Virus record (IMG/VR): IMGVR_UViG_3300010167_000010
Location: 265,019-329,018 of that record
DNA: 64,000 bases
Reading direction: 5' to 3' (one strand)
Source: a virus
Taxonomy: Duplodnaviria > Caudoviricetes
Position numbers and translations under genes: made by a program
The notes under the pieces: generated by a model
Told to the model about the DNA's origin: nothing
The model's database searches: none
The model's input: the letters and a program-made list of their open reading frames with translations, nothing else
In this document: piece by piece, positions 8,256-62,658 of the stretch
How positions within the stretch are numbered: the first letter of the stretch is position 1
Layout: every line of letters starts with the position of its first letter

Positions 8256-9959
8256 ATGAATATGAGTAAACAAGCACGGTTCAAATCACTACAATCAAAT
8301 GGTCCAGTATTCCCCAAAAAATGGGAACATAAGGGCTACCACGCGGCTGGAGAAAAGCTTCCCCTTCTTGCAGAAGAAATGGCTTGGAAAGCAGCTCGTT
8401 TTATTGGTTCAGATTATGAAAAAGAATGTTTCGCATCTGATTCTAATATGTGGAAATGCTTTTATCCAGAATTGACCAAATCGCAACAAAAATTATCACA
8501 TGCTGATTATATTGCGATGATGAGTGGTATGAAGGCAACACAAGAGATTTTAAAAGAAGAAAAGAAAGCTCTTTCAAAAGAAGAAAAAATAGCAATTAAA
8601 AATGAAAAAGAAGCTCTTAAAGAAAAATACGGATTCGCAATTCTTGATGGTGAAAGTGTTCCCCTTTCCGGATATATGATTGAAGAGTCAAATTGGATTT
8701 TAACTCGCGGTAAAGATCCCCGAAAATTTTGTTGGAAATATGCTGTAGAAAAATCTGATGTTACTTTGAATATTGTAAATGGAAAACCAGTTTCAGGATT
8801 TAATTGTATTTCTGATAATACAGTTATTTGGGTAATGCGATATAAAATTAAATGCGGAAGACCTGAGATGAAGGCTTTTATGGAGCTCAATAAAATTATT
8901 GCTTTTGCTCCTTCTGTTTCAGTTCGTCAAGCTAATAATTCTGGAAAATTTGATAAATCTAAAAATATTCTTAAAAATTGGAATAAAATTCAATCTCAAG
9001 TTCTTGCTGATGCTACCGATTGTTCATTAAAGAAAAATCCTAAGCATGAAGCACTTATCGTGTATCTTATTCAAGAAACTGGTATTCGTATTGGTGGTGA
9101 AAAAGATGAACGAAGAGCTAAAACTTATGGAATGAGTACTCTTGAAAAAAGACATATAACTCTTGGTTCAGATTTTACAGTAACATTTGATTTTCTTGGA
9201 AAAGATAGTGTTCCTGAAACGAGAACAATAATTATTGATGAAAATGTTTGGTATAATCTTGAAAGTCTTTTAGCTTGTAGAGATACAAATGAAAGAATAT
9301 TTAATAATGATATAGACGTTAATGGTTACCTCAAGAAAATACATCCTGGTGCAACAGTTAAAAATCTTCGTACTGTAAAATGTAATGAAGTTTTGGTAAA
9401 AAATCTTAAAACAAAAAAAGTTACAAAAACAAATACTGAGGCCGAAAAGCTTAGAGCAATATTTGAAGCAAATCTCGAAATTGCAAAGACAATGAATCAC
9501 CAAAAAAATATTGGTAAAAATCAAAAAGAAGGTGAAGTAAAAATTGCTGAAAAAGTTCAAAAAGCGAAAGCTCGTGTAAAAGAACTTAAGAAAAAGCATA
9601 AAGAGAAAATAATTAAACTTGATACTCAGGTAGCAAAAATTAAAATTGCTTTCAAAGGCATGAAGATATTAAAAGAAAAACTTGCCAAAATTGAAGAAAC
9701 AAAAATTAAAATGATTGCTCAAATGGAAAGAGCAGTAATGAGCATTGAAAAAACAGAATTTGCTCTTGACAAGAAAAAACTTACTGCGGATATTGCTTTG
9801 GGAACTTCCCTTGCAAATTATGCTGACCCTAACGTAATATATTCTTATTGCAAATACGTAGATCTCCCAATTGAAAGAATATATTCTGCTAGTCAGAGAA
9901 AAAATCTAACTTTTGCTGAAAGTGTAGATGCAAATTATTGGATAAATTACCCAAGTTAA
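8256..9959 (+). CDS. DNA topoisomerase IB, large eukaryote-like type
   Basis: Motifs SLQSNGPVFP, GIRIGGEKDE, FDFLGKDSV, VKNLRT, MNHQK, Lys-rich coiled-coil linker, IALGTSLANYADP (catalytic Tyr); R-K-R-H-Y residues present. Confidence 0.93.
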   Translation: MNMSKQARFKSLQSNGPVFPKKWEHKGYHAAGEKLPLLAEEMAWKAARFIGSDYEKECFASDSNMWKCFYPELTKSQQKLSHADYIAMMSGMKATQEILKEEKKALSKEEKIAIKNEKEALKEKYGFAILDGESVPLSGYMIEESNWILTRGKDPRKFCWKYAVEKSDVTLNIVNGKPVSGFNCISDNTVIWVMRYKIKCGRPEMKAFMELNKIIAFAPSVSVRQANNSGKFDKSKNILKNWNKIQSQVLADATDCSLKKNPKHEALIVYLIQETGIRIGGEKDERRAKTYGMSTLEKRHITLGSDFTVTFDFLGKDSVPETRTIIIDENVWYNLESLLACRDTNERIFNNDIDVNGYLKKIHPGATVKNLRTVKCNEVLVKNLKTKKVTKTNTEAEKLRAIFEANLEIAKTMNHQKNIGKNQKEGEVKIAEKVQKAKARVKELKKKHKEKIIKLDTQVAKIKIAFKGMKILKEKLAKIEETKIKMIAQMERAVMSIEKTEFALDKKKLTADIALGTSLANYADPNVIYSYCKYVDLPIERIYSASQRKNLTFAESVDANYWINYPS

Positions 9960-10442: not shown

Positions 10443-12878
10443 ATGATTTTAGACAACAAGAATTATAATATTGAAAACAATTTGGAAACTGAATCTAGCG
10501 AATTTGAAATTGCTGCTAATGCAAAAATGTTTGATATATTATCAAATAAAATTTATGAAGATCCAATCAGAGCAGTAATTCGTGAGCTTTCCTGTAATGC
10601 TATCGATGCTAATATTGAAGTAGAAAATATTGAACCATTTAAAGTTTATCTTCCAACCCAAAATTATAAATCTTTAATTATTGAAGATAACGGTATAGGC
10701 ATGACCCATGAAGATGTTATGACAGTTTATAAATCTTATGGAAAATCTACTAAATCTAATTCTAATAAGGTAATTGGTGCATTAGGTTTAGGCGGGAAAA
10801 CACCTCTTGCTTATACTTCACAATTTATTTTAGAAACTGCAAAAGATGGAAAGAAAAATAGTTATATAATTTTTAAAGATGAAGATGGTATTCCAAACGT
10901 TACTTTAACTTCTTCAGAAGATACTGATATTTCTGGAACAAAAATTGAAATGATTGTTCGTAATGAAGATATCGATCTTTTTATTACAGCAGCTATTAAA
11001 ACTTTTGTTTTCTTTGATAAAATGCCGATAATTATGAGAGGAGAAGACGAGTTTTATAGAGTAATATATCAAAAATTTAGTAATACTATGGAAATAGGAA
11101 AGGCTAAATTAGCTTTTGATGAAGCTAGATTTTTATTAAAGAATGATTATATTTCTAATGAAAGCAACGGTGGCGATATTATTATTCGTAAAATATTAAA
11201 TAGCTATAATAGTACACATGGAATTATTATGGGACAAGTTTATTATTCAGTAAATCCTAAAGCAATTTTAAGAGATGGTTATGGAACAGCTGCTGAAGAA
11301 GTATTAAATTTTCCAAATTATAGTAATTATTCTGGCATAAGAAAAGTTATTCATGTAAATCTTGGTGATGTATCTTTTCAACCTTCACGTGAAGTATTAA
11401 ATTATAATAAATCTACAATTGCTTTACTTCAAAATAGATTTTATAATCATTTTGAAAATTATATCGTAAATATGGAAAATTACAAGGATCCAAAAACTTT
11501 CTTGAAGAATTTTTCTAAAATAAATTATGCAAAAGATGTAGTAAAAATCTCTACATGGGATGATACAAATCAAGATGTTTCTTCTATAAGAGATTTATAT
11601 AAAAATGTTATAAATTATTTGTATTCTGAAATTGATCAAAAAGAAGCAAATTATTATATTAAGCAACGCCATAATGGAACTTGGGAAGTACAAGCTATAG
11701 CTCAAGACAGCGCATCAAAAATACAAGACTTAAACACTACAAAAAGTATTTTTTCTGATATATTTGTAGAAAACAAAATAAAAAATATTATTGTATTAGA
11801 TGATGCAAATATTTCTGAAAAACTGGATAATTTTCATAAGAAAGCTTTAGAAAAACAAAGATTTTATTTTACTACTCCAATAAGTTTAAGAAATAAACTT
11901 GTTCTTCTTGATAAAACTATAAATACATTATGTGTAACTGAAAAGACAGCAAAAAAATTAAAAGCTTTTCTAAAAATAGATTTTATAAATTGTTCTAAAT
12001 TAGTAGTTACAAAAGAAGCTAAAATTAAAACAAAATCTGAAAGAGATACTTCTGCAAAATGTTATAATTATACTGAAAGAAGATATGCCGAAATTAATGA
12101 AGTATTAAAAATTACTAAGAAAAATAAAGTTACATATGAATGTTTTGAAGGAGAAGTAAATAAGAAAGGTTGGTGGTATACTCCTTTATTTGATGTAATA
12201 AATAAGAGTACAAAAATAAATAAGCAGGCTTGTATTAAAATAAATTATCATGGAAGCTATAATAATTGCAGTAATAGAGTAGAAGATTTTAATACGATAT
12301 TTAATATGCTTCCCAGTAATAGACCGCATCATTATTTGGTAGATTGGAATTTCTTTAAAAAATATATTATTGGAAATAAAAATTGGGTTCATATAAATGA
12401 TTATGCAACCAATTTAATTAAGGATAATTTTAATACAATTTCAACTAACGCATTAAATATAATTTTATTTGGTGATTCTCCATTTTATAGATCAACTCAA
12501 GCTGAGGCATTATTAAAACATGGAACTGAAAAATATCTTAATTTTGAAAATACAGCTTTTGGAATAGAATGTCAAAGAAAAATTAATGAATCGTTTAATA
12601 AAGAAACTGATATTAGCTTAAATAAAAAGACAGTATCTACATTTCATAATTCTCTTATGGGAATGAAAGAATATTTTAGTTCAGACAGTTTTAATAAACT
12701 ATTAAAAGATTTTGAAGAATTAAAATTAAAATTAGAAGCTGTCAATATAAAAAGAGTAAATTATTGTACAGAAATATATGAAAAATATCCGATGATTATT
12801 TATGCATTAAAATCTGATTTCGATAAAGATCACTTAATAAATTATATTGCAGAAAAAGAGAGCTTAGTATTAAAATGA
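10443..12878 (+). CDS. rIIA: rIIA-like protein with N-terminal GHKL/Hsp90-type ATPase
   Basis: ILSNKIYEDPIRAVIRELSCNAIDA, EDNGIGM, YGKSTK, IGALGLGGKTPLAYT, FQPSREVL are typical of phage rIIA. Confidence 0.85.
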   Translation: MILDNKNYNIENNLETESSEFEIAANAKMFDILSNKIYEDPIRAVIRELSCNAIDANIEVENIEPFKVYLPTQNYKSLIIEDNGIGMTHEDVMTVYKSYGKSTKSNSNKVIGALGLGGKTPLAYTSQFILETAKDGKKNSYIIFKDEDGIPNVTLTSSEDTDISGTKIEMIVRNEDIDLFITAAIKTFVFFDKMPIIMRGEDEFYRVIYQKFSNTMEIGKAKLAFDEARFLLKNDYISNESNGGDIIIRKILNSYNSTHGIIMGQVYYSVNPKAILRDGYGTAAEEVLNFPNYSNYSGIRKVIHVNLGDVSFQPSREVLNYNKSTIALLQNRFYNHFENYIVNMENYKDPKTFLKNFSKINYAKDVVKISTWDDTNQDVSSIRDLYKNVINYLYSEIDQKEANYYIKQRHNGTWEVQAIAQDSASKIQDLNTTKSIFSDIFVENKIKNIIVLDDANISEKLDNFHKKALEKQRFYFTTPISLRNKLVLLDKTINTLCVTEKTAKKLKAFLKIDFINCSKLVVTKEAKIKTKSERDTSAKCYNYTERRYAEINEVLKITKKNKVTYECFEGEVNKKGWWYTPLFDVINKSTKINKQACIKINYHGSYNNCSNRVEDFNTIFNMLPSNRPHHYLVDWNFFKKYIIGNKNWVHINDYATNLIKDNFNTISTNALNIILFGDSPFYRSTQAEALLKHGTEKYLNFENTAFGIECQRKINESFNKETDISLNKKTVSTFHNSLMGMKEYFSSDSFNKLLKDFEELKLKLEAVNIKRVNYCTEIYEKYPMIIYALKSDFDKDHLINYIAEKESLVLK

Positions 12879-13729
12879 TTAAACACATAATTACAGATGA
12901 AGCAATTTTAATTCCCACATCTAAAGGAGTTATTCAATATCAAAAAGATGATGATCTCTATAATGATATTTTAACCCTTGTAATGAAAGAAGATTCTACA
13001 TTAGAAGATATTAAAAAATTAAATTCTTCTTGTAATTATGAAGATGATGATATAGTTTTTATTCAAGAAAAAAATACAGATTCAGTAGAAGTTATTTTTA
13101 ATGGAAGATATCATTTTTTAAATCATACTTTTGTTTCTAGACTTATTCAAATGTTAAAATTAAATGATGGTTTTCAAATGAAACACGCAGCTAATTTTAT
13201 CAAAAGATTATTAAAAAATAATTTTAATTTAACTAATACTTTAGAAAAATTATTAGAAATTGGTTTTTTATATACTCCTTCTGGACAAATTATTTCAGTA
13301 AAAAATTTTGAAAATGAAGGCAAAGGTGTTTTTGCAAAAAAGAGGTCTTTTGCTGAAAAAGATATGATTAAAAAAACTTTCATTTTAATAAACCCTGAAG
13401 ACATTGATGCTCATTTTAATTTTGATCAATATATAGTTTTAGCTAATGTTATGGGCCCTGAAATTTTTGGAGAAAAATATCAAACATTTCTTAATGGTTC
13501 TTGTATAGGTGATGCAGATGAATTATTTAATATATTTAATGTTTTTGAAAAATGCAAAAATAACTATTTATTAAAAGATATAGAAGATTTTACAAGCTTT
13601 AATAAAGAGATAGAAGAAAAATTAGGTGTAGAAATAAATATGAAAAATAGAAAAAGTTCTGAAGTAGTTCTTTCTATATCTCGTTTAATGAAGTTTAAAA
13701 AAATAGTAAATAATATCTTATTTGACTAA
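12875..13729 (+). CDS. Divergent rIIB-like protein
   Basis: Overlaps the rIIA stop; ANFIKRLLKN ... YTPSGQIISVK resembles rIIB NF..RL..N/TPDG.F.AYK. Confidence 0.5.
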   Translation: MIKHIITDEAILIPTSKGVIQYQKDDDLYNDILTLVMKEDSTLEDIKKLNSSCNYEDDDIVFIQEKNTDSVEVIFNGRYHFLNHTFVSRLIQMLKLNDGFQMKHAANFIKRLLKNNFNLTNTLEKLLEIGFLYTPSGQIISVKNFENEGKGVFAKKRSFAEKDMIKKTFILINPEDIDAHFNFDQYIVLANVMGPEIFGEKYQTFLNGSCIGDADELFNIFNVFEKCKNNYLLKDIEDFTSFNKEIEEKLGVEINMKNRKSSEVVLSISRLMKFKKIVNNILFD

Positions 13730-19832: not shown

Positions 19833-19998
19833 TTTCATCTTCCTCCTCTTCGTCATATTCTTCTTCATCGTAATCATCATATTCATTACAAACTTCGTCG
19901 TATAAATCAGCTAAATCTACTTCAGCTTGTTCTCTACTACCGTCTTTTATAGTTTCAATGATCTCTTCAAGTCGTTCAATTAATTCCTCATCTTTCAT
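19789..19998 (-). CDS. Very acidic small protein, 69 aa
   Basis: AAGGAG SD; D/E-rich tail. Confidence 0.7.
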   Translation of the reverse strand: MKDEELIERLEEIIETIKDGSREQAEVDLADLYDEVCNEYDDYDEEEYDEEEEDENGDYDGEEEDSEDE

Positions 19999-41473: not shown

Positions 41474-42328
41474 ATGGTTATTAATAATAACTTAAGTGCA
41501 TTATTTGCACAACGGATGCTTGGAATAAACAACAAGGAAGTTTCCAAGCAATTAGAAAAATTAGCATCTGGTTTAAGAATAAACAGAGCTGCAGATGACA
41601 GCGCGAATTTAGCAGTATCTGAAAAGATGAGAGCTCAAATCCGCGGACTTCAACAAGCTTCAGCTAATACACAAAATGGTGTATCTTTTATTCAAACTAC
41701 AGAAGCACATCTTGTAAACACAACAGATATTTTACAACGTTTAAGAGAATTAGCAGTTCAAGCATCAAATGGAATTTATTCAGACGAAGATCGTTTAATG
41801 ATTCAAGTTGAAGTATCACAATTGGTTTCCGAAATTGATCGTATTGCAAGTCACGCTCAATTTAATGGGATGAATTTACTTACTGGTAGATTTGCTAGAC
41901 AAACTGGAACACAAGATATGTTTTTTCATGTTGGTGCAAACATGGATCAGCGCATTCAAGCTCATATTGGTGAAATGACAGCTCAAGCTCTTGGTATGCG
42001 AAATGAACAGGGCTCTAATGAAATTATCTCTTTAAGAGATACAGAATCATCAAATATGGCACTCGGTAGTATCGACGCCGCTCTTCGCATCGTCAACAAA
42101 CAACGAGCTGATTTAGGTGCATTGCAAAACAGAATGGAACATGCACAACGAGGTATCGACATCGCAAGAGAAAATCTACAAGCATCTGAAAGTAGAATTA
42201 GAGATGCAGACATGGCAGCAGAAACTACAAAATATGTCAAAGATCAAATTTTAATGCAAGCAGCTGTAGCAATGTTAAGCCATGCAAATGGAAACTCACA
42301 AAACGTATTACGACTTTTAGGTATGTAA
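41474..42328 (+). CDS. flaB: Spirochaete-type flagellar filament core protein FlaB
   Basis: [76 protein letters not shown]; 284 aa. Confidence 0.95.
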
Positions 42329-43935: not shown

Positions 43936-44178
43936 GTGAATAGATTATACGATTTTCAGTTTAAACAAATAAATGACTCTATGTCTATTCAAGATATGAT
44001 TATACATTTAAATAATTTTCAAAATGCTGTTATTGAAGAAATTAGAGATTTAGAAGTTAAGATGTTAACTATTCCACCACCGCAAACTAATCCTTATATA
44101 AATCATTTAATGCAAGAAATAGAAAATTTAAAAGAAGAATTTAAAAGAGAAAGAAAACGTTGGGGACTTCTTGACTAA
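43936..44178 (+). CDS. Hypothetical coiled-coil protein
   Basis: ORF. Confidence 0.45.
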   Translation: MNRLYDFQFKQINDSMSIQDMIIHLNNFQNAVIEEIRDLEVKMLTIPPPQTNPYINHLMQEIENLKEEFKRERKRWGLLD

Positions 44179-45383: not shown

Positions 45384-45650
45384 ATGGAAATTATGGAACA
45401 ACAAAATTTTAATAATTTACAAGACGCAATTTTAGAATTACGTGCTGAACTTGGATCTACAAAGAAAAATATAAAAGAAATTCTAACTATAGGTGAAGGA
45501 ACTATTATAGAACTTGACAAAAATGCTGATGAGCCAGTTACAATTTTTGTAAATAATATCAAATTTGCCGAAGGGGAAGTAGTAGCAGTAGACGAAAACT
45601 TTGGAATCCGTCTAACGAGGATTTTTTCACAAGCTGAAAGAAAAAGTTAA
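45384..45650 (+). CDS. fliN: FliN/FliY C-terminal (SpoA) domain protein
   Basis: LRAELGSTK..IKEIL.IGEGTIIELDKNADEPV.IFVN...FAEGEVVAVDENFGIRLT. Confidence 0.9.
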   Translation: MEIMEQQNFNNLQDAILELRAELGSTKKNIKEILTIGEGTIIELDKNADEPVTIFVNNIKFAEGEVVAVDENFGIRLTRIFSQAERKS

Positions 45651-53858: not shown

Positions 53859-55214
53859 ATGAAGAAAACATTTGTAGACCTAGTAAAGGAATACAGCGCC
53901 TGGAAATTACAAGAAAAAGGCAACGGTAAGCTTACCAGAGAAGAACTCACAAAGCTTAGAGAATCTTATAAAGCAACAACAGAAAAACAATCTGCTCTTA
54001 AAGAAAAAGTAGAAGAGTACAGAGCTTGGAAGAAAGAAAATAAGGGAACAGATAAAATTACTGAAAAAGAATTTAAAGCCCTTAGAGAATCCGTAATTAA
54101 AGAAAGTAAAAAAATAAATAATAAAGAACCACAACAAAATTGGGAAACTTATCTTTCTAATTACAAAAAATTTAAAGAAGGTAAAGAAGGCGAAGGTGCA
54201 AAAATTACTTATAAAGAATTAAAAATGCTTAAAGAAAATTGGAAGGAAGCAAGAGAAAAAGGTATTCATCTTAAAGAAGGTGATCCAGCTAATGCCGGTT
54301 TTGATCCAACAGGAGATCCAAATGCAATGCCTCCAGTTGAAGGAGCAGTTCCAGGAGCTGATATGGGAATGCCAGATCCAGCAGGCGGACAAACTGTTTC
54401 TGATATGGCAGCAGCTATTTCTGCAGCAGTTCAACCATTTATGGCAGATGCAGGGGCAATGGCACCAGTAGGAGATCCATTAGGTGCTCCTCCAGCAGGA
54501 ACAGATGCAGGACCAGTAACAGGAATGCCTCCAGCTGATCCAGCAGCACCACTTCAATCAAGTGAAAAACGTGGTGATAGATCAGGTAGATTATTTGAAC
54601 AATTAACAAATGATTATAAAGCTTGGAAAAAAGCAAATAAAGGAACTGATAAACTCACTGAAGCTGAAGTTGCAGCATTAAAAGAAGAAGCAGAAAAACA
54701 AAGTGCACCAGCACCAAAATCAAAATACGAACAAATTAAAGAAAGAATTGCAGCTAGACAAGCAGCAATTGAAGAACTTCAAGAAAACAGTATGGGCCCG
54801 CTTCCAACAGCTGCCCTTGCTAACTCAAAATTATGGAAACATAATAAGGGAAATAGCACAGGTGAAACACAAAAAACAGCTCCAGCAGCTCCATCACAAA
54901 TTGAAAAAGTTCCATCACCACAAACTTTAGCAAATGGTTATAGTTCAGGTGCAGCAGCAGGTGAAACATCACCAGCAAAAACATGGCCAACAAAATCAAT
55001 GGGTAAGGAAGCAGGTGGAGCACTTCAAGGTGCAAATGCAAAACAAATGAAAGAAAATGCAGAAGAAACAGAAACTGATTTAACTCAAGTAAAAGAAAGT
55101 GTTGTAGATAATTCAGTAAAAACAGTAACAGATGTTTATGTAGATAGATATTTTGAACCAAAACTTGACTTCGGAAAACTTAAGGAATCAATGAAGAAAG
55201 GCCTTTTAGGTTAA
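53859..55214 (+). CDS. Prohead core/scaffold-like protein
   Basis: Four repeats of Y.AWK..K.G..K.T..E...L[RK]E; many LKE/LRE; Pro/Ala/Gly linker. Confidence 0.55.
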   Translation: MKKTFVDLVKEYSAWKLQEKGNGKLTREELTKLRESYKATTEKQSALKEKVEEYRAWKKENKGTDKITEKEFKALRESVIKESKKINNKEPQQNWETYLSNYKKFKEGKEGEGAKITYKELKMLKENWKEAREKGIHLKEGDPANAGFDPTGDPNAMPPVEGAVPGADMGMPDPAGGQTVSDMAAAISAAVQPFMADAGAMAPVGDPLGAPPAGTDAGPVTGMPPADPAAPLQSSEKRGDRSGRLFEQLTNDYKAWKKANKGTDKLTEAEVAALKEEAEKQSAPAPKSKYEQIKERIAARQAAIEELQENSMGPLPTAALANSKLWKHNKGNSTGETQKTAPAAPSQIEKVPSPQTLANGYSSGAAAGETSPAKTWPTKSMGKEAGGALQGANAKQMKENAEETETDLTQVKESVVDNSVKTVTDVYVDRYFEPKLDFGKLKESMKKGLLG

Positions 55215-55225
55215 GGGGGTTAAAA

Positions 55226-55810
55226 ATGAGAAAGCTTAAAGAAGAAGCAATCACCCTTTTTGATACTGGAGATCAAAGAAGTTTTAATGAACTTTATGAA
55301 GGACAAGAGCATCTCTTTACTGATGTTGATGATTTGATTAGTCCAAAATTTAAAAAACTTTTTGAAGAAACTTATCAAGTTGGTAATATTCAACAAAAAC
55401 AAACTTTAAGAGAATGCGATGTTAAATACGGAAATGCAAATGGTTTTCAAGAACTCGATAATAGAAATGATGGTGTTCCAGAAGGACATAATAGGTCTTT
55501 AGCACCAGCTGGTGGTTCTAGTCCAAAAGTTAGACAATCTACACCTAATTATAGTACAAACAAACCATTATATGAAATGTTTGAACGTATTTATGAAGAT
55601 GTAAGTGGTCCTCCAGGTGGTCATTATGATAGTGGGAAAGGTAGTCCAAAACCATCAAATGACGGAGTACCTAGCGAAATTAATGGAAGTGCATTAAGTA
55701 AAGGACCTGCTAGTTCAATAGTACAATCAGGTGCTAGACAAGATGATAATTCACAATTAGGTAATGAACCAGCAATGGGACATGGGGCAGGCCCGAAAGC
55801 TCAAAGATAA
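55226..55810 (+). CDS. Putative internal head protein
   Basis: LKE/LRE, FEETYQ/FERIYE, repeated NDGVP. Confidence 0.5.
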   Translation: MRKLKEEAITLFDTGDQRSFNELYEGQEHLFTDVDDLISPKFKKLFEETYQVGNIQQKQTLRECDVKYGNANGFQELDNRNDGVPEGHNRSLAPAGGSSPKVRQSTPNYSTNKPLYEMFERIYEDVSGPPGGHYDSGKGSPKPSNDGVPSEINGSALSKGPASSIVQSGARQDDNSQLGNEPAMGHGAGPKAQR

Positions 55811-55835: not shown

Positions 55836-55860
55836 AGCCCCTGATTTTCAGGGGCTTTTT
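55836..55860 (+). terminator. Intrinsic terminator
   Basis: AGCCCCTGA-TTT-TCAGGGGCTTTTT. Confidence 0.85.
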
Positions 55861-55883
55861 ATTGTTAATATAACTTAAAAATT

Positions 55884-56264
55884 ATGACTCAAAAAGAAAA
55901 AAAGAAAATAGCTAAATCATTGGCTTTACCAATGGAAGACATAAGATATACAGAAGTGTTAAGCCAAGAAGAAATAGATCAACTTTTAACAGCAATTAAT
56001 GGTGATGAAGAATCTCCTAAAAATTTTAATAAAACACGAAAAAATACTCCAAAAATAGACTATATTTTTGATCAACATACAAAAATCAACTCTGAATTCT
56101 CAAAAGAAGCTAAAAATAATATTCTTTTATTAGAGGCTAAACTTAAGAAAACATATAAAGTTTTTTTAGAGACAACAAAAGAATTACAAAAAGAGTTAGA
56201 ACAATTAAAAGCCGAAAATGAAAGAATTAGAAAAATTATTAGAACTGCAGAATTATTCGATTAA
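55884..56264 (+). CDS. Protein with FliM-like CheY-binding peptide, coiled coil and ELFD tail
   Basis: TEVLSQEEIDQLLTAI matches the spirochaete FliM N-terminus. Confidence 0.7.
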   Translation: MTQKEKKKIAKSLALPMEDIRYTEVLSQEEIDQLLTAINGDEESPKNFNKTRKNTPKIDYIFDQHTKINSEFSKEAKNNILLLEAKLKKTYKVFLETTKELQKELEQLKAENERIRKIIRTAELFD

Positions 56265-56305
56265 ATAATTGAACAATAAAAATAAAAAGGCTTATATAAT
56301 AATAT

Positions 56306-56821
56306 ATGGAAATAATAACAGGTAATTATACCAAATTAGCTATTATTGAATGTTCTGTTTGTAGAGAAAATCATACATTAGAATTAATTTATGACCATGA
56401 CGATATGACAGTTTGGTTCGAAATGATGCCACAATCTTTTCCTTTTTCATTAAAATTAAAACATTGGTTTCTTTTTAAATTTTATCCAGAATTATTCACT
56501 TTAGGTTATTATAGACAATTTTTTAGTATAGCTTTAACAAATAATCAAATAATCAAAATTATAGAAGTATTAGAAAAAGTTGGTTATAAATCTAGAAGTT
56601 CATATTTATCTCAAAATTATGTTAACTTTATCGAATATTTTGATGTAAATGGTGTTATGATTAGTAAAGATAAAGATTTAGACCATATAGATTTATCTAT
56701 TCATGCTGTTGAAAAAACAGAATTAAATTGGAGACGAACTACTGGCGCGTGGGAAGCTGGTTTATCTAAAGAAGATACAGAAATATTTATTGGTACTCTA
56801 AGAAGTTTAGTTTATGAATAA
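56306..56821 (+). CDS. Hypothetical protein
   Basis: Class I promoter; CSVC..H. Confidence 0.55.
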   Translation: MEIITGNYTKLAIIECSVCRENHTLELIYDHDDMTVWFEMMPQSFPFSLKLKHWFLFKFYPELFTLGYYRQFFSIALTNNQIIKIIEVLEKVGYKSRSSYLSQNYVNFIEYFDVNGVMISKDKDLDHIDLSIHAVEKTELNWRRTTGAWEAGLSKEDTEIFIGTLRSLVYE

Positions 56822-56990
56822 AAAACCAAATCCACCATGGTGTCATTGTGAATATCATGAACATTTATATGAAAATGAGAAACCTAATTATTGGAATAAC
56901 GATTTAAGTGAGCCAATATGCGTTGGACATTTAAATAGAGATAAATGTAATTTTAGAAAAAAATTAAAAGAATGTGAATTATTTGATTAA
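56814..56990 (+). CDS. Cys/His-rich 58-aa protein ending CELFD (not in ORF track)
   Basis: MNKKPNPPWCHCEYH...KECELFD*. Confidence 0.65.
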   Translation: MNKKPNPPWCHCEYHEHLYENEKPNYWNNDLSEPICVGHLNRDKCNFRKKLKECELFD

Positions 56991-57000
56991 GGAGTAAAAA

Positions 57001-57348
57001 ATGACAATCAATAACCCATTTATTAAAGACAAGGATAACATTAAGTGGCTCGAAGATAATTATGAAACATTTTTAGATTATATGGCCAAACATCATTCAT
57101 TAGCAGATTGTTGGCATACCATTTTAGATTTATCAACGTTTGATGATAAATATATTTCTAATATGATAACTAAAGTTACTGCGGCTGATAATAAAAAAAT
57201 TAAAGAAGCTGCTGCTAGAAAAAGAAAACTTGGTGGAAAGAAAACAAATACAAAATCTACAACAATAGAAAAAAAGCAAAGCTTAATTGAAGAAGCAATA
57301 GAAGAAAAAAAAAGGAAATCAAAAGAAGAAGATGAGCTTCTGGACTAA
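57001..57348 (+). CDS. Hypothetical protein ending ELLD
   Basis: AAGGAG SD. Confidence 0.6.
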   Translation: MTINNPFIKDKDNIKWLEDNYETFLDYMAKHHSLADCWHTILDLSTFDDKYISNMITKVTAADNKKIKEAAARKRKLGGKKTNTKSTTIEKKQSLIEEAIEEKKRKSKEEDELLD

Positions 57349-57688
57349 GAAACATTTTAAAGATAAAGATATAGAACAATTTGTTTTAACACCATCTTTA
57401 ATTCGTACAAATTGTCACGATTGTTTTAATTTTATTTCAGGTGGAACAGCATGCGATGTAAAAAGAGAAGAATTTAAAAATAAATATATAAAATATTTTA
57501 AGAAAAATAGTTTAAATGTATTATCTTCTGGAATAAGAGATGAGCATATGATTGGAGAATGTGTATCTAATTTATGTCAAAATTATTCTAAAAAATTATA
57601 TCCAAAAAAATATATTGATCAAATAAACAAAGTACATCCTCCTATAGAAAATCCATTCAAAAAGGGAGAATACGAATTATTTGATTAA
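57332..57688 (+). CDS. Cys-containing protein ending YELFD
   Basis: CHDC...C...C...C. Confidence 0.6.
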   Translation: MSFWTKKHFKDKDIEQFVLTPSLIRTNCHDCFNFISGGTACDVKREEFKNKYIKYFKKNSLNVLSSGIRDEHMIGECVSNLCQNYSKKLYPKKYIDQINKVHPPIENPFKKGEYELFD

Positions 57689-57690
57689 TT

Positions 57691-57903
57691 ATGTGTGTAA
57701 AAGATGCTGATCGTTATTGTGCTAATGCAAATAGTAAATATTGTAAACTCTGTTTTGAAATAAGTATATTTCCTTATTTCTTTAGAGCAACTGGACTTGA
57801 TGATTTTAATTTAAAAGGCTGGCATGAAACTGAATATGAGAAAATTTTAAAAATAAAAGAAGAAAAAATTAATGAAGCTATGCTTTGTGAATTATTTGAT
57901 TAA
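57691..57903 (+). CDS. Cys-containing protein ending CELFD
   Basis: C....C.....CxxC. Confidence 0.6.
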   Translation: MCVKDADRYCANANSKYCKLCFEISIFPYFFRATGLDDFNLKGWHETEYEKILKIKEEKINEAMLCELFD

Positions 57904-57930
57904 ATCTTATATAATATTAAGGAGAAAACT

Positions 57931-58969: not shown

Positions 58970-59469
58970 TGAAATTTTTGCTTTTTATATATGATCCAGA
59001 GGAAATTATATGGGAAGCTCTTAATCCAATGGATGACGATATATATGATTTAATAGAATCTTTAAATGAAAATATTTCTTTAAATATTAAAGAAGTCGTT
59101 ATTCGTGGTTCATTAGGTGAAACATTAGAAATGTATGTAAATATTTCTGATGATCAAGATTATGATAGAATTCTTTTTTATTATGATGGAAACTTTTGGT
59201 TAGATAGTTTAGCTAATAACGCATTCTTAACTTTTGTATCAGAAAATATGCGACCAGAAGTTGGTCATCATACTCATAATTTAATTGACAGATGGATAAA
59301 AACTCCTTATGAAGAAGGAAACGGTAAAAAACTTTTTGCTGAAATTTTACATCTTTGCTATAAAAACTTAGCAGGTGATATACTTTACGAACAAGATAAA
59401 GTTAAAACATTAGAAGAAAAACGTGCTAAAATAGATGAAATAGGCAAGTTTTATTTGAATAATTCTTAA
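58966..59469 (+). CDS. Hypothetical acidic protein
   Basis: ATGA coupling. Confidence 0.5.
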   Translation: MMKFLLFIYDPEEIIWEALNPMDDDIYDLIESLNENISLNIKEVVIRGSLGETLEMYVNISDDQDYDRILFYYDGNFWLDSLANNAFLTFVSENMRPEVGHHTHNLIDRWIKTPYEEGNGKKLFAEILHLCYKNLAGDILYEQDKVKTLEEKRAKIDEIGKFYLNNS

Positions 59470-59488
59470 TATTATCTTATATTATATT

Positions 59489-61310: not shown

Positions 61311-61676
61311 ATGGCTAAATTAATTCAAGAAGAATTTAAATTATTAAGAGATAAACATTGGACTAATGAAAATGCTGAAAAAATAGTTTTAGAAAATACT
61401 ACTGATAATCATTATAAATATTATCATTTATCTCAAGATAAAAATGAAAATTTTATTTTATCTAATAGTCGACCTTTCAGAGCCGCGTGGGGAAGAATTG
61501 GTCATAAAGCACAATCTAAAAATTATATAGAACCAGGATTAACTATGTGGGATCAAATGATGAAAAAATTAGCAAAAGGATATATAGTTAAAACTTATCA
61601 AGTATTTGGAGATCATTGTTCTGCATATCAAGAATTCATGCAATTAGTTGGAGATGATGCGGAGTTATTCGATTGA
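61311..61676 (+). CDS. WGR-domain protein ending AELFD
   Basis: NHYKYY...WGRIG...KKLAKGY. Confidence 0.75.
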   Translation: MAKLIQEEFKLLRDKHWTNENAEKIVLENTTDNHYKYYHLSQDKNENFILSNSRPFRAAWGRIGHKAQSKNYIEPGLTMWDQMMKKLAKGYIVKTYQVFGDHCSAYQEFMQLVGDDAELFD

Positions 61677-62105: not shown

Positions 62106-62630
62106 ATGACAATTAAAGATATTTTAACTGAGGCAGTAGAGAAAAAAATAACTTATGCAGAAGCAAAAGAAAAATTAAAAAAATTAAGGCTTCCGCGGGA
62201 TGATTTTGAGCAATATGATATTTTAATTTACAAATTATTAGGAAAGGAAGAAAAAATAATTCATAATAAAATTCAATATCTTCCTAATATTCCTAATACT
62301 GTTTATAGTGTTATATTACAAGATGCTATTCAAAAAGTTAGAGAAGAATGGTATACTCCTGAAATATGTCAACACTTATTTGATACATATAGAATAAGCT
62401 CAAGTTTAATGAATTATTTTATAAATGAAGCAATTCATATAGTTAGAATGAACTCTATGAGCCAGGAAGAATTTGTAGAAATTGGTAAAATGTATCATAA
62501 TGCTATAAAATTTTTAGAAGAAAATATTAAAGAAGGGAAAAATATAAAATTAGAGGTACCAACTCCTAATATAAATGCTGAACAAGCAGAGAAAATTATA
62601 GTTAAACCAGTTGATTGTGACGACGAATAG
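62106..62630 (+). CDS. Hypothetical late protein
   Basis: ACTAAATAAT directly before ATG. Confidence 0.55.
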   Translation: MTIKDILTEAVEKKITYAEAKEKLKKLRLPRDDFEQYDILIYKLLGKEEKIIHNKIQYLPNIPNTVYSVILQDAIQKVREEWYTPEICQHLFDTYRISSSLMNYFINEAIHIVRMNSMSQEEFVEIGKMYHNAIKFLEENIKEGKNIKLEVPTPNINAEQAEKIIVKPVDCDDE

Positions 62631-62658
62631 TCTTATATAATATTTAGAGGATATCAAT

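Follow-up and report, generated by a model that had tools for sequence, protein, structure and literature searches.

The last 64 kb of the IMG/VR virus record IMGVR_UViG_3300010167_000010 (329,018 bp in total; "the window" below means this whole stretch of 64,000 nucleotides) contain, at positions 55884–56264 on the plus strand, a gene for a small protein, P0001, that carries an internal copy of FliM-N, the segment with which the flagellar switch protein FliM of spirochaetes begins. The record, with a G+C content of ~29%, can be assigned to a phage because it has direct terminal repeats, is rated 100% by CheckV and encodes RIIA, a DnaB-like helicase, GroEL and a T4-type RNA ligase within the window. 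On the basis of AlphaFold2 prediction (family alignment; mean predicted local distance difference test score (pLDDT) 71.8), which gives helices at residues 3–13, 28–39 and 70–121, coil at 40–69 and a free tail, together with sequence comparison, the gene and its parts can be described as follows:

55884–56264, plus strand: whole gene for P0001, 126 residues and a stop codon, a stand-alone FliM-N-peptide protein
55884–55949, plus strand: residues 1–22, basic lead at the N terminus, predicted to form a short helix at 3–13 (AlphaFold2 and alignment)
55950–56000, plus strand: residues 23–39, TEVLSQEEIDQLLTAIN, the FliM-N copy (identity with Treponema FliM; helix predicted at 28–39)
56001–56090, plus strand: residues 40–69, mixed-charge linker of low pLDDT, predicted to be disordered (AlphaFold2)
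56091–56246, plus strand: residues 70–121, single long heptad helix including LKAENERIRK with a conserved Asn at an a-position, a probable coiled coil
56247–56261, plus strand: residues 122–126, AELFD-COOH, an LFD tag common to 17 other unrelated open reading frames (ORFs) of the genome

Residues 23–39 of P0001 are identical at all 17 positions to residues 2–18 of the 343-residue FliM of Treponema and Spirochaetaceae. Among ~8,000 homologues gathered with the phage's own FliM as the query, the canonical 343-residue proteins named Treponema, Spirochaetaceae or Treponemataceae all start MTEVLSQEEIDQLLTAINAG(D/E)TEPEDF, and the start of the P0001 linker (G-D-E-E-S-P-K-N-F) echoes the acidic AG(D/E)TEPEDF found directly after the peptide in FliM. 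The peptide motif matches FliM in 130 of the 151 Treponemataceae genomes searched. Judged by these comparisons, the peptide genuinely copies the N-terminal segment of spirochaete FliM and does not resemble it by chance, and, at 0–1 changes from host-type FliM versus 4 changes from the FliM encoded by the phage itself, it is the most host-like copy in the genome. An initial annotation, made from the letters of the sequence alone, had placed the motif (TEVLSQEEIDQLLTAING) at about residues 23–40 of a protein with no other FliM domain that continues into a coiled coil and an ELFD tail. The motif lies at exactly residues 23–40 of the ORF, Pfam, PHROGs and NCBIfam scans came back empty, and a helix with heptads (residues 70–121) and a C-terminal AELFD are indeed present; the spirochaete FliM start that the annotation gave (MTEVLSQDEIDQLLTAI) is letter-perfect in two Treponema metagenome-assembled genomes (MAGs; L013 and L015).

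Despite this identity, P0001 is not a FliM by the domain searches. Of three features that define FliM, it has the N-terminal LSQxEIDxLL segment (residues 26–35, LSQEEIDQLL), whereas the middle domain (PF02154 / TIGR01397, in Pfam and NCBIfam scans) and the C-terminal FliN-like SpoA domain (PF01052) are both absent; the scans of Pfam, PHROGs and NCBIfam gave 0 significant matches of any kind. A BLASTP pairing of P0001 residues 21–104 with residues 34–125 of the phage FliM (34% identity, E = 3e-7) is weak beyond the peptide. A sequence search of the PDB returned coiled-coil noise only, from a library that excludes the FliM peptides of CheY complexes (<20 residues), and a search of the ESM Atlas returned only long-helix look-alikes. 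Within the predicted fold, helix 28–39 corresponds to the EIDQLLTAI part of the peptide and is set between disordered segments, and thus the peptide should be accessible. The a and d positions of the long helix are hydrophobic at a fraction of 0.60–0.80, versus 0.13–0.21 elsewhere, in all six family members tested, and the Asn at the a-position (LKAEN...) is conserved in four of these six. Asn at this position specifies dimers in GCN4-type zippers. The long helix, continuous and with its periodicity extending over at least four heptads, is therefore a probable coiled coil in sequence terms, and on the basis of the heptads and the a-position Asn, P0001 is probably a dimer that carries two peptides.

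P0001 belongs to a small family. Word-indexed comparison with 5.8 billion proteins gave a single relative, P0002 (38% identity); P0125, P0126, P0128 and P0129 came from 1.84 billion representatives searched exhaustively with HMMER, and P0131 from a profile search. The seven proteins (that is, P0001 and six relatives) have 122–150 residues, are 28–39% identical to P0001 overall and share a single architecture of variable lead, peptide, charged linker, heptad helix and C-terminal LFD-type tail, with a peptide of the pattern [R/H/K/F/Y]-[T/A]-E-[V/I]-L-[S/T]-Q-x-E-I-D-x-[L/M]-L-x-A-I. The lead of P0001 is conserved only with that of a sister phage (TQ..KK.LAK.L...DIRY). In the six members of the family alignment (A1, which P0131 stands outside and on which the regional identity and codon figures given here are based), pairwise identity averages 0.84 in the peptide and 0.55 in the tail, compared with 0.28 in the lead, 0.19 in the linker and 0.27 in the helix. 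Over the 17 peptide codons, all pairs together differ by 142 synonymous versus 41 non-synonymous changes, and the Ser codons alternate between AGY and TCN; this codon pattern therefore indicates long-term purifying selection on the peptide and not recent transfer or an artefact. As far as codons and identities can tell, purifying selection acts strongly on the peptide within this small family of phage genes, with synonymous change saturated. The initial annotation had named absence of the motif from close homologues as grounds for giving up its reading; the motif is kept in all six relatives, as the best conserved part of the family.

The setting of these genes is likewise shared. At least five of the six relatives are on large phage-like contigs with a common gene order, and the phage-like contigs that bear family genes measure 328, 261, 183, 87, 47, 34 and 16 kb. 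The order runs from GroEL through a 751-residue protein, a protein of ~424–451 residues ending KGLLG and a Q/S/G/P-rich protein to the peptide gene, and continues with small ORFs, an RNA ligase and a WGR protein. A phage fliM accompanies the peptide gene in at least two relatives (contigs of 328,413 and 183,314 bp). In related phages, a gene for a ClpS-like adaptor (PF02617; L148:6269-6574 and L163:12836-13141) is found a few kb 3′ of the peptide gene, just before the RNA ligase; none was recognised at the equivalent place in the window of P0001.

Outside the family, the same peptide recurs in other free-standing proteins. The metagenomic mini-proteins P0132, P0133, P0134 and P0136 (93–130 residues) consist of two or three tandem FliM-N peptides without any other domain; P0132 and P0133 are encoded on bacterial-looking contigs of 47–54% G+C (loci L160 and L161), next to either glycosidase-like and acyl-CoA-ligase genes or the gene of a PemK toxin. 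A single peptide is joined to other sequence in P0135 (a region of 230 residues) and at locus L184 (an HNH-like C terminus), the latter being one of a few Treponemataceae genomes with small extra peptide ORFs, as is L179 with an ORF of 67 residues. Our literature search found no description of proteins built of tandem FliM-N peptides. Given these tandem-peptide proteins, the peptide is used as a module in its own right, which fits a sponge; judging from sequence, FliM-N clearly serves as an autonomous module.

The phage also encodes motor parts of its own. Its fliG–fliM pair lies outside the window (G000:C1:32167-34771, locus L002:195-2799) and encodes a three-domain FliG of 404 residues and a FliM of 465 residues with a C-terminal FliN-like domain (PF02154 at 252.9 bits and TIGR01397 at 303.6 bits, above the cut-off). 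The peptide of this FliM has diverged by four changes (TEVLSAKEIDELLKAIN), and its 34-residue N-terminal extension holds a second, degenerate copy (VLDQDDIDDLV); the related phage-type FliM proteins P0006–P0012 have a clear tandem second copy, for example (E/S)(I/V)LSQEEID. Two further motility genes are found within the window:

45384–45650, plus strand: stand-alone FliN of 88 residues with a SpoA domain (82.9 bits, against a TIGR02480 cut-off of 84.05)
41474–42328, plus strand: flagellin of 284 residues (Flagellin_N, 140 bits)

A genome-wide search with PF01052 matched the phage FliM and the 88-residue FliN only, and both also match the NCBIfam model of the flagellar motor switch phosphatase FliY (NF005995). 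Given the genes for FliG, FliM, FliN and flagellin, the gene content indicates that motility is a target of the phage. The genome has no stand-alone CheY, and its sole receiver domain (Response_reg, 92.5 bits) is at the C terminus of a membrane hybrid histidine kinase of 611 residues (G000:C1:164185-166020, minus strand, locus L003:1474-3309).

The host is probably a Treponema spirochaete of termite-gut origin, as suggested by sequence relationships. Identity between the phage FliM and Treponema FliM reaches 76% where the two can be aligned, and the contig of the sister phage (Ga0123356_10000005) comes from the same metagenome as the Treponema MAGs Emb289P3bin52 and bin69, whose contig names carry Ga0123356. 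The FliM of both MAGs starts TEVLSQDEIDQLLTAIN, which is exactly the peptide of the sister phage (Asp at position 7), whereas the P0001 peptide is the E-variant at this position, as in other Treponema. Such variants look as host-tracking mimicry would look, with two cases amounting to an anecdote only. As the phage has no CheY of its own, the conserved CheY3 of the host is the obvious candidate partner. An orthologue of Borrelia burgdorferi CheY3 was recovered from bin69 (P0130, 145 residues, at L102:1483-1917 on the minus strand; best PDB match 3hzh, E = 1e-51), and CheY3 is present in 37 of the 41 Treponemataceae genomes sampled, at 62–89% identity. When Treponema CheY3 (alignment A2, 30 sequences) was modelled in complex with family residues 1–60 (A1), the scores were 0.27 and 0.31, with the mark at 0.32; obtained without controls, they speak neither for nor against binding.

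The C-terminal tail of P0001 is one instance of a wider pattern. Eighteen ORFs of the genome (≥40 residues) end LFD, 12 of them ELFD, whereas 0.19 would be expected from composition, and six further ORFs end LLD; the LFD carriers are unrelated proteins of 54–284 residues, and 9 of the 24 LFD or LLD carriers lie near the two genome ends. Those in the window are as follows:

LFD-tailed ORFs: 12875–13729, 55884–56264 (P0001), 56814–56990, 57332–57688, 57691–57903 and 61311–61676
LLD-tailed ORFs: 43981–44178 and 57001–57348
56814–57903, plus strand: four consecutive small ORFs, ending CELFD, DELLD, YELFD and CELFD, in the same direction as P0001 and just downstream of it

Ten tail-bearing proteins were without any Pfam domain; the only carrier with one is a WGR protein, and the others are ORFans. 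Family tails read DLFD, SLFD, ELFD, DLFDDI, DLLEDDI and DLLEDI (in their long forms GGGDLFDDI, GGGDLLEDDI and GGGDLLEDI), and non-homologous neighbours in two related phages (L147 and L004) end HELFD, WELFD, YELFE, ALFDK and ILFDD. From these counts, the LFD tail is a real and separate phenomenon, a genome-wide tag that is conserved in related phages. We rejected the classical β-clamp motif QL[SD]LF as an account of the tail, as no Gln is conserved at −5. A search for a tail receptor gave no match to the T4 gp45 family in the genome. An ORF of 392 residues (G000:C1:150014-151192, plus strand; locus L152:1465-2643) matches the C-terminal domain of DnaN below the threshold (E = 0.003–0.05), has no sequence match in the PDB, and may be a divergent sliding clamp and a candidate receptor for the C-terminal tails.

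Upstream of P0001 are two low-complexity genes that hold the same position in all related phages: one (53859–55214) encodes 451 residues that are rich in A, P and G, with repeated W-K-x-x-x-K-G-x-x-K-(L/I)-T units and a KGLLG end, and the other (55226–55810) encodes 194 residues rich in Q, S, G and P. Between the latter and P0001, and in front of several other genes, the following putative signals were noted:

55836–55856, plus strand: intrinsic-terminator-like hairpin (9-bp stem with 6 GC pairs, then a T-run) that ends the upstream 194-residue gene
55865–55874, plus strand: TTAATATAAC box, 9 nt 5′ of the ATG, a variant of the CTTATATAATAT box
~56284–56305, 57903–57915, 59468–59488 and 62630–62645 of the window, and ~19875–19891 of genome C1: CTTATATAATAT boxes, a few nt before start codons

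Because the hairpin closes the upstream gene, P0001 seems to be the first gene of a new transcription unit of small ORFs. The CTTATATAATAT box stands directly 5′ of several phage genes (starting at 56306, 57931, 59489 and 62659 of the window and at genome position 19892), some of which show no visible Shine–Dalgarno sequence; we consider it a candidate phage-specific promoter giving short-leader transcripts, and the TTAATATAAC box, tentatively, a phage promoter element. Met17 was dismissed as the start of P0001 as a general rule, given that in P0002 and P0126 the peptide is not preceded by an internal Met. P0001 and the phage GroEL gene had 0 matches by tblastn or blastn in 50,697 GenBank phages. 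A search for Terminase_6N (PF03237) gave no match, and neither did one for Gp23 (PF07068), for which the control matched nowhere, leaving the Gp23 result uninformative. Elsewhere in the window (8256–9959, plus strand) is a gene for a topoisomerase IB of 567 residues that has all three eukaryotic-type domains (Topoisom_I_N at 79.5 bits, catalytic core at 140.4 and Topo_C_assoc at 55.3), which is unusual in a phage.

Assuming that the FliM-N copy acts as FliM-N does, the behaviour of the original can guide its interpretation. In Escherichia coli, the 16-residue FliM-N peptide MGDSILSQAEIDALL(N) is the docking site of CheY, and isolated peptides bind weakly (~600 µM for unphosphorylated CheY and 20-fold tighter for phosphorylated CheY (CheY-P); bioRxiv 10.1101/781468). 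In B. burgdorferi, the binding of CheY3-P to FliM goes through FliM-N and depends on phosphorylation, and cheY3 mutants run constantly whereas cheX mutants flex constantly (bioRxiv 10.1101/2020.05.18.101634). We lean towards a reading in which P0001 mimics FliM-N, binding CheY3-P of the host in competition with the motor, because of its identity with the host peptide, the selective conservation and predicted accessibility of that peptide, and the lack of another recognisable function. In such a scenario, the exposed and flexibly tethered residues 23–39 would bind phosphorylated CheY3 (that is, the motor-directed response regulator of the host) and occupy the surface with which it normally docks on C-ring FliM, and this competition would lower the occupancy of FliM by CheY3-P. 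Less flexing or reversal might then give uninterrupted runs, as in the cheY3 mutant, and, during infection, motility would be uncoupled from chemotaxis. The heptad helix towards the C terminus would make P0001 a dimer with two peptides, and the ELFD tail, a property common to ~18 small phage proteins, could serve a common docking partner, localisation or turnover. The initial annotation had proposed a multimeric CheY-P sponge that suppresses motor reversals or routes CheY to whatever binds ELFD; of this the mimicry is solid, whereas CheY binding and its consequence are what we infer from it.

Several observations weigh against competition for CheY3-P. The peptide of P0001 is internal, with 22 residues before it, whereas that of FliM is at the extreme N terminus; phage-type FliM proteins likewise have N-terminal extensions before the peptide, which mitigates this point. 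The G+C content of the phage (~29%) is below that of the sampled Treponema loci (40–54%), and the host is itself deduced. If FliM-N bound CheY as weakly here as the isolated peptides do in E. coli (bioRxiv 10.1101/781468), a pure sponge would need an abundant protein, and dimerization would bring no avidity towards monomeric CheY. A simple decoy would also leave the coiled coil and the genome-wide ELFD tail unexplained, which hints at an additional partner. Such a partner is provided for if P0001 is an adaptor and not a sponge, the peptide capturing CheY3(-P) and the ELFD tail passing it to a receptor (a protease, a phosphatase or a phage hub), such that CheY would be destroyed, dephosphorylated or relocated catalytically instead of titrated. 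Catalysis would sidestep the weak affinity of FliM-N (bioRxiv 10.1101/781468), the tail is specific and conserved far above expectation, being present in every family member and in non-homologous neighbours, and the ClpS-like gene lies only a few kb downstream in relatives. However, ClpS was not recognised in the window, the other carriers are ORFans that, bar the WGR protein, give no indication through a Pfam domain of what the tail does, and a tag on ~18 unrelated proteins could just as well be a signal for the turnover or localisation of the carriers themselves; we regard the adaptor as unlikely but credible. An extension of it, in which the phage conducts a motility-takeover programme by bringing a C-ring (FliG, two-peptide FliM and FliN) and flagellin while P0001, as a bifunctional adaptor, removes CheY3-P and delivers it through the ELFD tail to a common receptor, strikes us as distinctly unlikely as a whole.

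The phage-encoded FliG, FliM and FliN also allow for P0001 to join a C-ring rebuilt with these proteins and to supply a host-type CheY-docking arm in trans, which would alter the response of the motor without sequestering CheY. It would make sense of a phage FliM whose own peptide has diverged and whose second copy is degenerate while P0001 retains the host-type peptide. Yet no FliM-M, FliN or FliG-like domain is present in P0001, nor can similarity to any C-ring-binding segment be detected, and its gene is ~287 kb away from fliG–fliM, within a block of small ORFans near the genome end, and we consider this role quite improbable. The client of the peptide could instead be a receiver other than CheY3, through which P0001 would rewire another phosphorelay: the phage hybrid kinase ends in one, and other single-domain regulators abound in Treponema, with 102 receiver-domain matches and several CheY–CheX pairs in one termite-gut MAG. 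This is very unlikely in our estimation, as the peptide is that of host FliM, the known partner of which is the motor-directed CheY (CheY3 in spirochaetes; bioRxiv 10.1101/2020.05.18.101634), and no evidence links FliM-N to kinase receivers. That the peptide is an inert remnant, a captured or duplicated 5′ fragment of fliM fused by chance to a helical ORF, is scarcely believable; although the weak match of P0001 to the phage FliM beyond the peptide fits an origin from the 5′ end of fliM, a four-part architecture held in seven proteins that are only 28–39% identical to P0001, selective conservation of peptide and tail with saturated synonymous sites, and a gene order kept on large phage contigs would be difficult to reconcile with a lack of function.

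If the peptide does bind CheY3-P, P0001 would be a clear case of a bacterial virus that mimics a host signalling interface through a short linear motif. Known phage strategies include the use of flagella as receptors and the blocking of pili. Our literature searches found no phage protein aimed at the chemotaxis signal and no phage with a FliG/FliM/FliN/flagellin set, and nothing relevant on jumbo phages of termite Treponema. Were competition for CheY3-P confirmed, it would imply that control over the swimming of infected termite-gut spirochaetes matters to the virus (for example, for holding position, dispersal or flagellar superinfection exclusion) and would provide a small, genetically encodable CheY-P inhibitor for research on spirochaete motility. 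With a predictable client, P0001 also offers an entry point to the reader of the ELFD tail on the many ORFans of this phage clade; under the takeover scenario, it would be the first anti-chemotaxis factor from a phage as well as the first ELFD carrier for which a client can be proposed.

Compared with known systems, P0001 is most like FliM-N itself (Treponema MTEVLSQEEIDQLLTAIN; E. coli MGDSILSQAEIDALL(N)), sharing the LSQxEIDxLL core and, with residues 2–18 of Treponema FliM, every one of the 17 positions; an acidic stretch ending (D/N)F and a flexible linker follow the peptide in both proteins, and the EIDQLL part is predicted to be helical. It differs from FliM in that the middle and FliN-like domains are missing, the peptide is internal, a coiled coil and an ELFD tail are added, and the gene is located on a phage genome, a long way from the fliM of that phage. 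In Bacillus subtilis, FliY is a second switch protein with a CheY-P-binding peptide of the FliM-N type at its N terminus. P0001 resembles it as a non-FliM protein to which a portable peptide would recruit CheY-P, whereas FliY combines the peptide with CheC-like phosphatase and FliN domains, neither of which P0001 has, and is part of the C-ring. The C-terminal peptide of CheZ and the P2 domain of CheA are competitors for the CheY face, and CheX serves as the phosphatase of CheY-P in spirochaetes (bioRxiv 10.1101/2020.05.18.101634). Like these, P0001 would draw on the CheY-P pool and lower motor occupancy, but all three are host-encoded, have catalytic or phosphotransfer roles and show no sequence relation to P0001. 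For the tail, T4 proteins bind the gp45 clamp by their C termini, and the acidic, Phe-ending tails of T7 gp2.5 and gp4 dock on the polymerase. The likeness is one of principle, that is, one short C-terminal tag on many unrelated proteins that is kept in related phages; the sequence here is x-[E/I/L]-L-F-D-COOH, and the carriers are small ORFans and not replication proteins. Functionally nearest are the tandem-peptide mini-proteins (P0132, P0133, P0134 and P0136), P0135 and L184, which have the same peptide without FliM domains, although they are non-homologous to P0001 outside the peptide and have neither coiled coil nor LFD tail. The novelty of P0001 would thus appear to be in its deployment, a known binding module put to use by a virus as a free-standing protein.

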